This document shows positions 59,297-64,000 of a DNA stretch of 64,000 nt, in pieces. Where the stretch lies: assembly GCF_003790525.1 (NCBI RefSeq), contig NZ_CP033635.1; one strand, 5' to 3'. Each line of letters starts with the position of its first letter. The first letter of the stretch is position 1. Source of the DNA: Escherichia coli. Lineage in GTDB: Bacteria; Pseudomonadota; Gammaproteobacteria; Enterobacterales; Enterobacteriaceae. A program made the position numbers and the translations under genes. The notes under the pieces are model-generated. The model worked only from the letters and a program-made list of their open reading frames with translations, had not been told where the DNA came from and ran no database searches.

Positions 59297-60196
59297 CTAG
59301 CTATTCTCTTTAATGTTATTTCGTAAAATCGTCCAAAAGTGTTCAGCCGTTTTGTTCAGCCGAGTATCCATACGATAAATATAAGCCTGAATAGGCACTG
59401 CCCATTTAGCAGGCCACGGACACACAAGTCGTTTTGTGTTCAGTTCATCCGCGATTGACCAGAGAGGGAGCCAGGCAATACCAAGTCCATTGAGTGCCAT
59501 ATTTTTTAGTAGTTCACTCATTGAAGATACCAATATTGTGTGTCCGGCTATCCCTCCCTGTTCTGCCAAATGACGATTAACCAGTCTGCCCATATAAGAA
59601 GTTGGAGTATAGTCGAGCAAAGGAGCCTGTGAATTGGTAAGATCGAAAATCGGTTTTCCCTGTTGATCAGCAGCACATACCGGATACAACTCAGATTCAA
59701 ACAGTTTCATACAACAAAATGGCGATTGCATAAACTCCTCATCTCGAAATGAAATAATAAAGTCACTCTTCCCTTCTCGTAACGTATTTACGGCCTGGAC
59801 GACATCAATAGCCTCAACATGATAGATAAAGTCTCCGCCTAAGGTGGTGAGTGAGTGCAGAAGTTTAGGTAGCATGCTGAGGGATAATGAGTGCGCAGCT
59901 GCAATCTTAATATTAGGCAAATTGAATGAATTATCCCCCCCTAACTCATTCAGATTGCATTCAAGCTGTTGCACTAAACTGCGTGTCTGGGAGTGAAAAA
60001 GCCTACCCTCTTCAGTTAATTGTAAAGGAGAGGTTGTACGATCGAACAAAACAACACCTATAGCTGACTCTAACGCTTTTATTCGTCTGCTGAATGCTGG
60101 TTGTGAAAGGTTACGATCTTTTGCTGCCTGACAGAAATTGCGACAGGCTTCCAGTGTCAGGAAATCATATAACCATTTGGTCTCTATATTTTTCAT
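59297..60196 (-). CDS. LysR-family transcriptional regulator, divergent from the racemase operon
   Basis: 299 aa ORF with N-terminal LysR HTH. Confidence 0.8.
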   Translation of the reverse strand: MKNIETKWLYDFLTLEACRNFCQAAKDRNLSQPAFSRRIKALESAIGVVLFDRTTSPLQLTEEGRLFHSQTRSLVQQLECNLNELGGDNSFNLPNIKIAAAHSLSLSMLPKLLHSLTTLGGDFIYHVEAIDVVQAVNTLREGKSDFIISFRDEEFMQSPFCCMKLFESELYPVCAADQQGKPIFDLTNSQAPLLDYTPTSYMGRLVNRHLAEQGGIAGHTILVSSMSELLKNMALNGLGIAWLPLWSIADELNTKRLVCPWPAKWAVPIQAYIYRMDTRLNKTAEHFWTILRNNIKENS

Positions 60197-60535
60197 TTCT
60201 ATTATCCAAGTATTATCAAATTTTAGTTAGTATACCCCCCGAAAACCGGGGTAATGAATGCAGATAGCATATTTAAGTTATTCGTTTTATGCATAATCCA
60301 TTCGTTTTCTGTATCTAAACCAGTTTAACACTTCTCCCAAAAGCGTTTATTTTCATCATTATGATAGGTCTTCATGCAACAATAGTATATGGTTCATGTA
60401 TATTGCAAAACTACATCATGCAAGTCTTGCATTGCATTGTACATCATTGCATTTCTCATAGCCTTTAGAGACTGTTAAAAAAGGAGAAATGGTTTTTTAA
60501 GTTTATGAGCATTGATTTTCTGAGAGGTAAGTATT

Positions 60536-61255
60536 GTGAAAGGTTTAATCGGTGTGCTCGGTGGAATGGGGCCGGCCGCCACTGTCGACTTATTTAATAA
60601 ATTTGTCACCTTTACAGCAGCACAACGAGATCAAGAACATATACCTTTAATTATTTCTTCTATCCCGGATATTCCTGACCGTACCGATGCATTAATGCAT
60701 AACGGGCTCTCGCCTTTACCCGTTATGCGTGACTATATGCATAAACTGGAAGATGCAGGAGCAGAATGTATTGTTATTCCCTGTAATACCGCACACTATT
60801 GGTTTAAAGAACTAAAAGATGCTTGCCATATTGATATACTAAGTATCATAGATACTACGGTCGATGAAGTTCGCGTCTGTGGTAAAACTAGAATTGGCCT
60901 CCTGGCCACTGATGCCACGCTGTATATGGGATTATACCAGAAAGGAATTGAATCGTTAGGGTTTAACTATATCACCCCGGATGCAGATGGCCAAAAAAAT
61001 GTGATGAAAAGCATTTATTCACTTAAAGCGGGAAATGTTACACATGCGCAAAAATTGATGGAAGAGCAGGCTGAAAATTTATTTTCCCGCGGAGCAGAGA
61101 TCTTGATTCTTGGTTGTACGGAAATTCCCATTATTCTGTCACAAGCCGTTAAAGATCAACCTTTACGCTATATTGATTCAACCGCTTCACTCGTTCGCGC
61201 AGGAATAAAATGGTATGAAAATCGTATCGGAAAAGATCAACATTTAACTCAATAA
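60536..61255 (+). CDS. aspartate/glutamate racemase-family enzyme
   Basis: 239 aa ORF; GGMGP N-terminal motif and conserved CNTAH and GCTE cysteine motifs. Confidence 0.75.
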   Translation: MKGLIGVLGGMGPAATVDLFNKFVTFTAAQRDQEHIPLIISSIPDIPDRTDALMHNGLSPLPVMRDYMHKLEDAGAECIVIPCNTAHYWFKELKDACHIDILSIIDTTVDEVRVCGKTRIGLLATDATLYMGLYQKGIESLGFNYITPDADGQKNVMKSIYSLKAGNVTHAQKLMEEQAENLFSRGAEILILGCTEIPIILSQAVKDQPLRYIDSTASLVRAGIKWYENRIGKDQHLTQ

Positions 61256-61313
61256 TTCTAAATCACAGCCAGAAAGTTATTTTACAAAGATTATATTTAC
61301 AACGGAGAACATC

Positions 61314-62612
61314 ATGGTTTGGCTGGAAATTATCGTTGTACTTGGCGCAATATTTTTTGGTATTCGTCAGGGAGGAATCGGCATTGGTTTATGCGGCGGT
61401 CTTGGCCTTGCGATCCTGACTCTGGGATTTGGTCTGCCTATGGGATCACCGCCAGTCGATGTGATCCTGATTATTATGACCGTAGTTGTGGCAGCTTCAG
61501 CCTTACAGGCGGCAGGTGGGATGGATTATCTGGTACGTTTAGCCAGTAATTTCATGCGACGTAACCCAAAATATATCAACATAATCGCACCGATTATCAC
61601 TTGGTTAATGACCATTATGGCCGGTACCGGGTTTATTGTTTTCTCCACACTGCCGGTAATTGCTGAAGTAGCAAAAGAGTCCGGTATCCGGCCTTCCCGC
61701 ACACTCGCTGGCTCAGTTGTCGCCTCACAGGTTGCAATTTCTGGCTCACCAATCAGTGCCGCAATGGCAGCTATGCTCACTATTATGGAGGTTAATGGCG
61801 TCAGTTTTATTCAGGTGATGTCGGTATGCCTTCCCACCTCTTTTGTCGCCGCGATGGTTGCTGCTTTTATCGCCTCCCGACAGGGGTGTGAATTACAAGA
61901 TGACGAAGTATATCTTGAACGTCTGCAAAAAGGTCTGGTGCAAAAATACGAGAATAATAACAGCATCAAACCTGGTGCAACGCTTTCCGTCGGATTATTC
62001 ATGCTGGCGACGATCGCCATTGTTATTCTTGCTGCATTCCCCCAATTGCGTCCGGGTTTTGATATCAGCAAACCGATGGAAACGCGCGATATTATTATTA
62101 TTTGCATGCTCTCTGCTGCCTGCCTGATGGTAATACTGTGTAAGATGTCTACTGATGACATTATTCTGACCTCCACATTTCGTGCTGGAATGAGTTCGCT
62201 GGCAGTGATTCTTGGTATTGTAACCTTAGGTACCACCTTTATTGATGCGCATTTAACTGAGATCAAAGATATCGCTGGTGATATTTTACAAACTTATCCG
62301 ATGCTTTTAGCATTAGTTCTTTTTTTTACCTGCGCTTTACTTTACTCACAGGGAGCGACTACGCCGTTAATTATTCCTCTGGCTGTAGCACTCAACATAC
62401 CAACCTGGGCAATTCTTGCATCTTATGTTGCCGTTACGGGAGTATTCGTGCTTCCAACGTATCCAACATCACTCGCCGCGATGGAATTTGATACTACCGG
62501 CACAACCCGTGTGGGCAATTATTTATTAAATCACCCATTTATGCTACCCGGGTTGGGTGGTGTTATTGCAGGAGTGACATTTGGGTTTGTGATTGCACCA
62601 ATGATGGTCTGA
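61314..62612 (+). CDS. DcuA/DcuB-family C4-dicarboxylate transporter paralog (fourth in window)
   Basis: 432 aa ORF with Dcu-family N-terminus and FDTTGTTRVG C-terminal motif. Confidence 0.8.
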   Translation: MVWLEIIVVLGAIFFGIRQGGIGIGLCGGLGLAILTLGFGLPMGSPPVDVILIIMTVVVAASALQAAGGMDYLVRLASNFMRRNPKYINIIAPIITWLMTIMAGTGFIVFSTLPVIAEVAKESGIRPSRTLAGSVVASQVAISGSPISAAMAAMLTIMEVNGVSFIQVMSVCLPTSFVAAMVAAFIASRQGCELQDDEVYLERLQKGLVQKYENNNSIKPGATLSVGLFMLATIAIVILAAFPQLRPGFDISKPMETRDIIIICMLSAACLMVILCKMSTDDIILTSTFRAGMSSLAVILGIVTLGTTFIDAHLTEIKDIAGDILQTYPMLLALVLFFTCALLYSQGATTPLIIPLAVALNIPTWAILASYVAVTGVFVLPTYPTSLAAMEFDTTGTTRVGNYLLNHPFMLPGLGGVIAGVTFGFVIAPMMV

Positions 62613-62833
62613 TAGAATCATAATTTTCATTCTTTATGGAAGTAGTTACAGAGTTACTATTTGATAATTAGTCAGGCAGTTAATCTGCATTCAGTTACTG
62701 ACTGTCAGAAGAATTCTGACAGATTGATATCACATGTTATTTCAATGATGTAAGAATTCAAATTCCGAGAGCATAGCTCCGGTTAAACAATTTGTTATTG
62801 TCACATTGTTTTCAAATAATGGAGTTAGAATAT

Positions 62834-64000
62834 TATGTCTCGTATTGAAAGCGATTTCCTTGGTGAGCGTGAAATTCCGGATGATTGCTATTATGGTGTT
62901 CAGACACTTCGTGGAAAAGATAATTTCCATATCACTGAAATGCCAATGAGTCAGGAGCCTTTCTTCATCATTGCCTTCGGTTATGTGAAAAAAGCAGCTG
63001 CGATGGCTAATAAGGAGTTAGGTACAATTCCTGCTGATGTTGCGGATGCTTTAATCTGGGCTTGCGACCAATTAATTGATGGTAAGTACCGGGAACAGTT
63101 TGTGACCGACTGGCTTCAGGGGGGAGCCGGAACGTCAACCAATATGAACTGCAATGAAGTGATTTGTAATCTTGCTGCAGAAAAACTTGGTAGCGTTAAA
63201 GGGGATTACAAACGCGTTTCGCCAAACGACCATGCTAATTTTGGTCAGTCCACCAATGATACATATCCGACAGCATTACATCTGGCATTGCTGCTGCGAA
63301 GCAATGTATTGCTTGAAGCTGTTGAACACCTCGTAGGAGCATTCTACAAAAAGGCTGACGAGTTCAGCACAGTGCTCAAGATGGGACGTACTCACCTGCA
63401 GGATGCAGTGCCAATGACTCTCGGCCAGGAGTTCCATGGCTGGGGTTTTACAATTAATGATGAAATTCGGGTCATCCGTAATGCACAGGAACACCTGCGG
63501 GTTGTAAACCTTGGTGCTACTGCGATTGGTACCTGTGTTACCGCTCACCCGGATTATCCCGCTTTAGCCGTGAAATATCTGGCCCAGATCACAGGCATTA
63601 ATTTCAGGAACAGTGAAGATCTCATCGCTGCCACAAGCGACTGTGGTGCATATGTTGCACTCAGTTCGGCCATGAAGAGCCTCTCTGTGAAGCTTACCAA
63701 GGTTTGTAATGACATTCGACTGCTTGCTTCAGGCCCCCGTTGCGGCCTGGCTGAAATTAACCTGCCTCAATTGCAACCGGGTTCTTCCATTATGCCTGGT
63801 AAGGTTAACCCCGTTATCCCGGAAGTAACAAACCAGTCTTGCTTCCTGGTTCAGGGGCTGGACACCACAGTGATGCTGGCGGCATCTGCTGGTCAGCTTG
63901 AGCTTAACGTTATGGAGCCGGTCATCACCTTTGCGCTGTTCACCTCACTCAAGGTGATGACGAATGCCTGTAACACACTCCGAACTAAATGCATTGATGG
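62834..64000 (+). CDS. aspartate ammonia-lyase-family enzyme, copy 2, 5' part; runs off the right window edge
   Basis: nearly identical at nucleotide level to the reverse complement of 33982..35148; antisense ORF 63276..63548 is identical to 34435..34707. Confidence 0.85.

Follow-up and report, generated by a model that had tools for sequence, protein, structure and literature searches.

A probable D-aspartate utilisation module of Escherichia coli combines the AspR-DcuA core with a duplicated Sutterellaceae-type aspartase gene

We analysed a stretch of 64,000 nt from Escherichia coli (contig NZ_CP033635.1 of assembly GCF_003790525.1; hereafter the window), which ends in a cluster of four genes: a gene for a LysR-type regulator and, divergent from it, genes for an Asp/Glu-family racemase, a Dcu-family transporter and an aspartate ammonia-lyase (aspartase; Table 1). 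These four genes, their order and the divergent orientation of the regulator had been proposed in an earlier reading of the sequence (the original prediction) and are borne out by the agreement of open reading frames (ORFs), coordinates and profile matches. The aspartase gene runs past the window end, with 388 of its 466 codons inside, and its full-length sequence was taken from a matching locus (L001). We estimate a probability of roughly 80% that the locus is a module for the utilisation and detoxification of D-aspartate by uptake, racemisation and deamination. The proposed route, in which imported D-aspartate is racemised and then deaminated to fumarate, is supported, and for its first two steps direct evidence, both genetic and analytical, has been published for close orthologues. 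However, the arrangement is not new to E. coli, as had been supposed, since its LysR-AspR-DcuA part is already in the literature (PMC6980539; review PMC7545054). The core of regulator, racemase and transporter is known, and only the extra aspartase gene is new.

Table 1. Positions of the module, of the related aspA region and of further island features in the window.
Feature	Position	Strand	Description
LysR-type regulator	59297-60196	minus	ORF of 299 amino acids
Divergent intergenic control region	60197-60535		339 bp, between LysR and racemase genes
Direct repeat ATTCGTTTTATGCAT / ATTCGTTTTCTGTAT	60280-60314		15-nt repeat, 20-nt spacing; candidate LysR site
T-N11-A dyad TGCAAGTCTTGCA	60419-60431		In the divergent region; candidate LysR site
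Asp/Glu-family racemase, two-cysteine	60536-61255	plus	239 amino acids, GTG start
Dcu-family transporter	61314-62612	plus	432 amino acids; 58-bp spacer after racemase
Module-specific dcu/aspA junction	62613-62785	plus	Matches STEC639 allele; no O104:H4 counterpart downstream of dcu
Junction hairpin	62702-62722		9-bp stem, no T run after it
Duplicated aspA segment	62786-64000 and beyond	plus	Leader of 49-50 nt, coding sequence from 62835
Aspartate ammonia-lyase gene	ATG at 62835, to window end at 64000	plus	222-bp spacer after dcu
Source aspA copy with 50-nt leader	33748-35198 (coding sequence 33748-35148)	minus	Intact, 466 amino acids
DcuA-type transporter	32258-33592	minus	Directly downstream of source aspA; 82-83% identical to aspA-linked DcuA of Duodenibacillus and Sutterella
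ansB copy	30724-31770	minus	After the DcuA-type transporter; ~96% DNA identity to housekeeping E. coli ansB
Degraded IS200/IS605 tnpA with STnc490 leader RNA	58139-58727	minus	Just past the LysR 3' end
dgoRKADT operon	~53200-57944		Adjoins the module
argH-like lyase, two Dcu paralogues, GntR/FadR-type regulator	23421-28426		G+C 40-44%
DcuR-like response regulator	29405-30130	plus	G+C 34%
Peptidase T-like gene and DcuC-like carrier	36014-38628	plus	Overlap of 4 nt
Isoaspartyl peptidase/L-asparaginase family gene	40214-41275	plus	

The racemase gene very probably encodes an aspartate racemase of the two-cysteine type which requires no pyridoxal 5'-phosphate (PLP), that is AspR, the orthologue of orf8 of the Shigella SRL pathogenicity island. 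The protein matches the TIGR00035 asp_race model with 194 bits (cut-off 93). Solved-structure homologues exist at 43-58% identity, the best being a Salmonella "putative aspartate racemase" (3s7z, E 4e-74) and the aspartate racemase of Pyrococcus horikoshii (1jfl, E 1e-49). Cys83 (in PCNTAH) and Cys194 (in GCTE) are present, and an alignment of 11 sequences including the P. horikoshii enzyme revealed both cysteines, the GGMGP loop, Asp48-Arg49, Thr125 and Lys164 to be invariant. In the archaeal enzyme, the arginine and the lysine hold the carboxylate of the side chain. Homology and active-site residues agree with the original racemase assignment: the best solved relatives are a putative and an established aspartate racemase, and the catalytic Cys83 and Cys194 as well as Arg49 and Lys164 are shared with the P. 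horikoshii enzyme (1jfl/2dx7), which belongs to the same fold family, although the two proteins are only 43% identical. The same fold, catalytic cysteines, arginine and lysine are found in the Salmonella 3s7z type, for which a relative from Citrobacter amalonaticus served as proxy; this relative is 52-54% identical to the window racemase.

The function of the core has been established in Shigella. After spontaneously losing the SRL pathogenicity island, S. flexneri YSH6000 no longer respires D-aspartate or grows on it (Henriquez 2020, PMC6980539). Both S. flexneri and S. sonnei regain the ability to use D-aspartate as their only carbon source for growth when a plasmid supplies orf8 (racemase) and orf9 (Dcu-type transporter) together with the orf8 promoter, and the conversion of D- to L-aspartate by orf8-orf9 was measured by chiral liquid chromatography-tandem mass spectrometry (PMC6980539). 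The pair is necessary and sufficient for growth on D-aspartate, and neither orf8 nor orf9 complements on its own. The same study describes orf7, upstream of orf8, as a LysR-like regulator and reports the orf7-orf9 unit also for E. coli O104:H4 strains; moreover, the AspR-DcuA pair is listed in a review (PMC7545054). For our identity comparisons, the locus of O104:H4 strain 2009EL-2071 (L011) served as a proxy for the functionally tested SRL allele. All six primers of the Shigella study match this locus, four of them exactly and the two tailed ones except for their added restriction sites.

Compared with this allele, the window proteins are 88.3% (racemase, orf8), 94.7% (transporter, orf9) and 79.6% (LysR, orf7) identical at the amino acid level, and positions 61314-61331 of the window are an exact match to the orf9 forward primer. 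The three genes agree in order and orientation with those of the SRL unit, and promoter blocks and the GTG start are conserved. In contrast to the SRL unit, the window allele has a fourth gene, for the aspartase, fused downstream, and it lies in an island adjoining dgoRKADT instead of the serX-linked SRL island. In the SRL-type allele, IS600/IS1 elements follow directly after dcu, and the downstream sequence is unrelated to that of the window. On every feature that can be judged from sequence, the locus is thus a member of the AspR-DcuA D-aspartate system, from which it differs by a fused xenologous aspartase and by its island context. With respect to the published constructs, we noted that "orf8 alone" uses as its start an ATG (Met11) which lies 30 nt into the conserved ORF with its GTG start. 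This construct loses ten N-terminal residues, part of a stretch which is conserved to the archaeal enzyme (60536-60582 in the window; 8128-8174 in L011), and the shortening may have been a second cause of the failure of orf8 to complement on its own.

By analogy with orf9, the product of the dcu gene is presumed to be the D-aspartate importer. It matches PRK09412 with 588 bits. The description of this protein as DcuA-like holds for membership of the Dcu family but not for closeness to DcuA itself, as it is only 49% identical to K-12 DcuA. The racemase-linked Dcu proteins form a group of their own with 66-95% mutual identity and are 43-49% identical to the canonical, aspA-linked DcuA proteins of K-12, Campylobacteraceae and Sutterellaceae, whereas the latter are 57-59% identical to one another across these lineages. 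We therefore rejected an assignment as canonical DcuA: the transporter groups with the racemase-linked carriers, not with aspA-linked DcuA, and is a member of the wider Dcu family.

The regulator passes the NCBIfam HypT model (382 bits; cut-off 301) and belongs to the same LysR subfamily as the hypochlorite-responsive HypT (YjiE) of K-12. However, we rejected its identification as HypT. It is 56% identical to K-12 HypT, while the true, iadA-linked HypT orthologue is 81% identical, and its neighbourhood consists of racemase and dcu instead of iadA-yjiGH. Furthermore, Met123 of HypT, presumably one of the methionines which are oxidised on activation, aligns with a leucine in the module LysR. LysR proteins linked to racemase and Dcu genes form a group of their own, with 71-83% identity within the Enterobacterales and 59-65% to the Pasteurellaceae. 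These comparisons argue that the module LysR is a HypT/YjiE paralogue dedicated to the racemase module. The divergent region contains a direct repeat and a T-N11-A dyad, both candidate LysR sites, as well as TTGCAT repeats. The repeat, the dyad and the ribosome-binding site with the GTG start (GAGAGG-N8-GTG) are kept across the window, the O104:H4 allele and Citrobacter freundii, with diverged flanks. FNR-type sites with fewer than two mismatches were not found in the module promoters, and the 61 sites found window-wide are within chance (49 ± 7 expected). An Rfam scan of 57900-64000 gave only the IS200-associated STnc490 and no match in the module leaders. This RNA (122 bits) belongs to a degraded IS200/IS605 element beside the LysR gene; an IS200 tnpA pseudogene likewise lies beside the LysR gene of the O104:H4 allele.

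To place the module in a wider context, we compared ten neighbourhoods from seven genera, namely the window and nine others. Racemase relatives at 55-79% identity occur in several genera. A divergent LysR gene with racemase and Dcu genes, but no aspartase, is found in Citrobacter freundii, Providencia, Actinobacillus rossii and Bibersteinia trehalosi. The racemase gene of a Campylobacteraceae genome belongs to an aspA-dcuA-racemase-asparaginase cluster, and Edwardsiella ictaluri carries only racemase and LysR genes, beside IS605 genes. Because the LysR-racemase-Dcu order recurs across genera and the 4.7 kb of the module are conserved in 222 complete E. coli genomes, the gene order is no chance juxtaposition. 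A more distant racemase branch (54% identity, the Salmonella 3s7z type) is present in Citrobacter amalonaticus beside a true hypT, the isoaspartyl dipeptidase gene iadA and yjiG/yjiH, with no adjoining Dcu gene (L009 7001-11112); K-12 has the hypT-iadA-yjiGH locus without a racemase (L013). HypT-family regulators are therefore repeatedly linked to aspartate racemases across several lineages, which hints that the native signal of this "hypochlorite" regulator family concerns D-aspartate or isoaspartyl metabolism.

The part of the fourth gene inside the window matches PRK12273 aspartate ammonia-lyase with 603 bits, and a full-length source copy elsewhere in the window matches it with 680 bits (cut-off 510); against the stricter TIGR00839 equivalog the aspartase scores 645 bits, just under the cut-off of 681. 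The closest solved structure is E. coli AspA (1jsw, E 7.5e-137). The motifs GSSIMPGKVNP (the fumarate-lyase signature), QSTND and GRTHLQDAVP are intact and identical to those of E. coli AspA in the alignment. The term paralog, used for this gene in the original prediction, is loose: with 88% identity to AspA of Duodenibacillus, 80% to that of Sutterella and only 55% to K-12 AspA, the gene is xenologous and not an E. coli duplicate. In these relatives aspA is paired with dcuA, as aspA-dcuA in Duodenibacillus and frdAB-aspA-dcuA in Sutterella. Within the window, the module aspA is an inverted duplicate of the source copy, with 99.38% DNA identity over 1451 bp (nine mismatches) and two residue differences, V14I and E28K. 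The duplicate spans the leader of ~50 nt and the coding sequence only and ends at the stop codon. The DcuA-type transporter encoded directly downstream of the source copy is only 45% identical to the module Dcu. Thus, the aspartase is a foreign gene of Sutterellaceae type which was duplicated within the island. Its DNA identity to the Duodenibacillus gene is 74.6%, with a third-position G+C of 0.47 versus 0.83, so that either the transfer of aspA is old or the donor was an unsampled relative of lower G+C. The two aspA copies constitute an inverted repeat ~27.6 kb apart in one island, and recombination between them could flip the intervening segment including the dgo operon.

The distribution of the aspartase indicates how the fusion arose. 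A diverged allele from E. coli STEC639 has the same dcu-aspA junction, with an AspA 98.3% identical but a racemase only 85.8% identical to those of the window. Since the junction is shared despite the divergence of the racemase, the fusion arose once, and the locus was later reshuffled by recombination. Neither the SRL/O104:H4 allele nor the LysR-racemase-Dcu modules of the other genera contain the aspartase, so that the three-gene form would be ancestral and the four-gene form derived. Loss of aspA from the SRL-type allele was also considered but rejected, as no aspA remnant was found downstream of dcu in that allele, where the sequence is unrelated, and as the other genera lack aspA as well; a gain in the window lineage is favoured. 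The aspA-dcuA operon of K-12 and other bacteria serves uptake and deamination of L-aspartate, which feeds fumarate respiration and nitrogen assimilation. The module shares with the K-12 operon the pairing of a Dcu carrier with an aspartate ammonia-lyase and the end products, but differs from it by the reversed order (dcu, then aspA), the added racemase, the LysR regulator and the Sutterellaceae-type aspartase.

The racemase, dcu and aspA genes are presumably co-transcribed, because they lie on one strand, with only a short spacer between racemase and dcu and no predicted terminator, and because the aspA copy lacks a promoter region of its own. A scan predicted no terminator-like sites between the three plus-strand genes, although its promoter and terminator hits are no commoner than in shuffled sequence and carry little weight either way. 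The junction contains palindromes besides the hairpin. The duplicate retained the ribosome-binding site of the source copy but not its promoter region, and expression of aspA by read-through from the racemase-dcu transcript is thus most likely.

In the proposed pathway, the Dcu-family carrier would import D-aspartate, which the two-cysteine, cofactor-independent racemase would turn into L-aspartate. The aspartate ammonia-lyase would then cleave L-aspartate to fumarate and ammonium, and these products would enter the tricarboxylic acid cycle or fumarate respiration and nitrogen assimilation. LysR, encoded divergently, probably responds to aspartate by activating the racemase promoter. Uptake and racemisation are assigned from the published genetics of the orthologues, and deamination from the protein family and its intact catalytic motifs. 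The comparisons described above established the orthology of the genes, their order and their conservation across genera, as well as the duplication and where aspA came from; from the sequence we further infer co-transcription, the inducer and the relevance of an extra aspartase in cells with a housekeeping aspA.

Several points weigh against this interpretation. The racemase differs from the tested SRL-type enzyme at 28 of 239 residues, and the function of the window allele is deduced from its orthologues. Moreover, the SRL clone was functional with neither the LysR gene nor a module-encoded aspartase, which argues that cells with a housekeeping aspA can do without the fourth gene. Between dcu and aspA, the 222-bp spacer has weak promoter-like hexamers and a stable hairpin, and independent or attenuated expression of aspA is therefore possible. 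Finally, the related CuyB racemises cysteate, and the paper describing it (PMC11193023) reports no aspartate assay; a cysteate side activity of the window racemase is possible.

We consider one alternative unlikely, although it retains some weight: only the racemase-Dcu pair would be functional, and the aspA copy would be an incidental duplicate, self-transcribed or silent, in a rearranging island rich in insertion sequences (IS). The modules of Citrobacter, Providencia and the Pasteurellaceae, like the SRL/O104:H4 allele, do without an aspartase, the SRL clone conferred its phenotype in the same way, the region is full of IS remnants, and the spacer with its hairpin is long. However, the copy lies on the same strand directly downstream of dcu, is intact with only two amino acid changes from its source and kept its ribosome-binding site but not the promoter region. 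Furthermore, the same junction in a second allele with 14% racemase divergence suggests that the fusion was retained, and the product of the racemase is the substrate of the aspartase.

It is highly improbable that the racemase is instead a cysteate racemase (CuyB) and that the module acts on the sulfonate analogue cysteate instead of aspartate. Cysteate is close to aspartate in shape and charge, several RefSeq records name the gene cuyB, and the window racemase scores 250 bits against the NCBIfam "equivalog" NF052483 racemase_CuyB (cut-off 190). However, this model also gives 249 bits for the allele validated with D-aspartate and 236 bits for the P. horikoshii aspartate racemase; it therefore cannot separate the two activities, and the label is no evidence for cysteate specificity. 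What defines CuyB of Bilophila wadsworthia, a member of the same family (PF01177), is that it partners the PLP-dependent D-cysteate sulfo-lyase CuyA (PMC11193023). In contrast, neither the window region nor any of the nine other neighbourhoods has a CuyA/PF00291 gene beside the racemase gene, and these contain Dcu, AspA, asparaginase or isoaspartyl dipeptidase genes instead, a context of aspartate metabolism. Recent RefSeq records from the NCBI pipeline name the racemase "cuyB: cysteate racemase" and the regulator "hypT", and both labels are probably over-annotations.

Aspartase and racemase reactions are reversible and Dcu carriers are exchangers, but a biosynthetic direction of the module, in which the aspartase makes L-aspartate, the racemase D-aspartate and Dcu exports it as a signal or for the cell wall, is very hard to reconcile with sole-carbon growth on D-aspartate, which needs net catabolism, with the lack of a D-aspartate ligase gene nearby and with E. 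coli peptidoglycan, which to our knowledge contains no D-aspartate. Signalling roles of bacterially released D-amino acids have been described (cited in PMC6980539), but the tested orthologues consumed D-aspartate from the medium, in which L-aspartate appeared (PMC6980539).

We found the four-gene allele in 222 of 5426 complete E. coli genomes (at least 99% identity and at least 80% coverage), and the ansB-dcuA-aspA segment (30724-35198) likewise in 222 of the 5426. The SRL-type three-gene allele (~85% DNA identity, without aspA) is present in 359 further records. Strains with the four-gene allele include FDAARGOS_497 and SMS-3-5, in the latter with an IS3 insertion in the copy. Four large plasmid records contain the four-gene module at 99.6% identity. 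In p399-2 (IncFIB/IncI typing), the one of them examined more closely, the module occurs together with dgoRKADT (L017 1-4311), pointing to a chromosomal segment which was captured by the plasmid. The G+C content of the module region is 34-47%, compared with ~52% for the neighbouring dgo genes, and the region is thus accessory DNA.

In the window, the dgoRKADT operon adjoins the module within an island that is rich in IS elements and lies close to cob and Asn tRNA genes. This island is unusually rich in aspartate, asparagine and C4-dicarboxylate functions. Besides the ansB-dcuA-aspA segment, it carries a pepT-dcuC pair, in which the peptidase T-like gene overlaps the gene for the DcuC-like carrier, an isoaspartyl peptidase/asparaginase gene, an argH-like lyase gene and two more Dcu paralogues. 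The argH-like lyase (TIGR00838, 615 bits) is encoded together with these two divergent Dcu paralogues and a GntR/FadR-type regulator, all of low G+C; the two Dcu proteins are 51% identical to each other and 33-38% to the remaining Dcu proteins of the comparison. Also encoded is a DcuR-like response regulator (313 bits, above cut-off), with no intact sensor kinase ORF beside it in the ORF list, and it may be an orphan or the remnant of a two-component system. The island appears to have been assembled from enterobacterial parts, such as the AspR-DcuA unit and the ansB copy, and from parts of gut anaerobes, the Sutterellaceae-type aspA-dcuA. Our literature search revealed no description of this aspartate/asparagine/C4-dicarboxylate cluster as a unit, and for a four-gene operon or an "aspartate island" of E. 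coli it returned only the SRL paper and the review. We tentatively suggest, as a doubtful extension of our findings, that the module might be one arm of a larger, undescribed island for aspartate and asparagine scavenging in ~4% of the complete E. coli genomes, in which fusion of the foreign aspA would have created a self-contained D-aspartate-to-fumarate operon supporting fumarate respiration and gut colonisation.

Overall, our analysis does not overturn existing knowledge, as the locus is a variant of a known system. It attaches a published and tested function to a locus which is mislabelled as a cysteate racemase with a hypochlorite regulator, and it traces the four-gene form to duplication of a horizontally acquired aspartase within the island. 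Moreover, it flags the wider aspartate/asparagine gene cluster as a candidate fitness island. Fumarate respiration promotes gut colonisation by Salmonella, and the cassette could also feed this process in its bearers. The combination of uptake, racemisation and deamination could give E. coli strains with the module both a nutritional and a detoxification edge, because D-aspartate occurs in the gut and the environment and is toxic to strains which are unable to remove it (PMC6980539).

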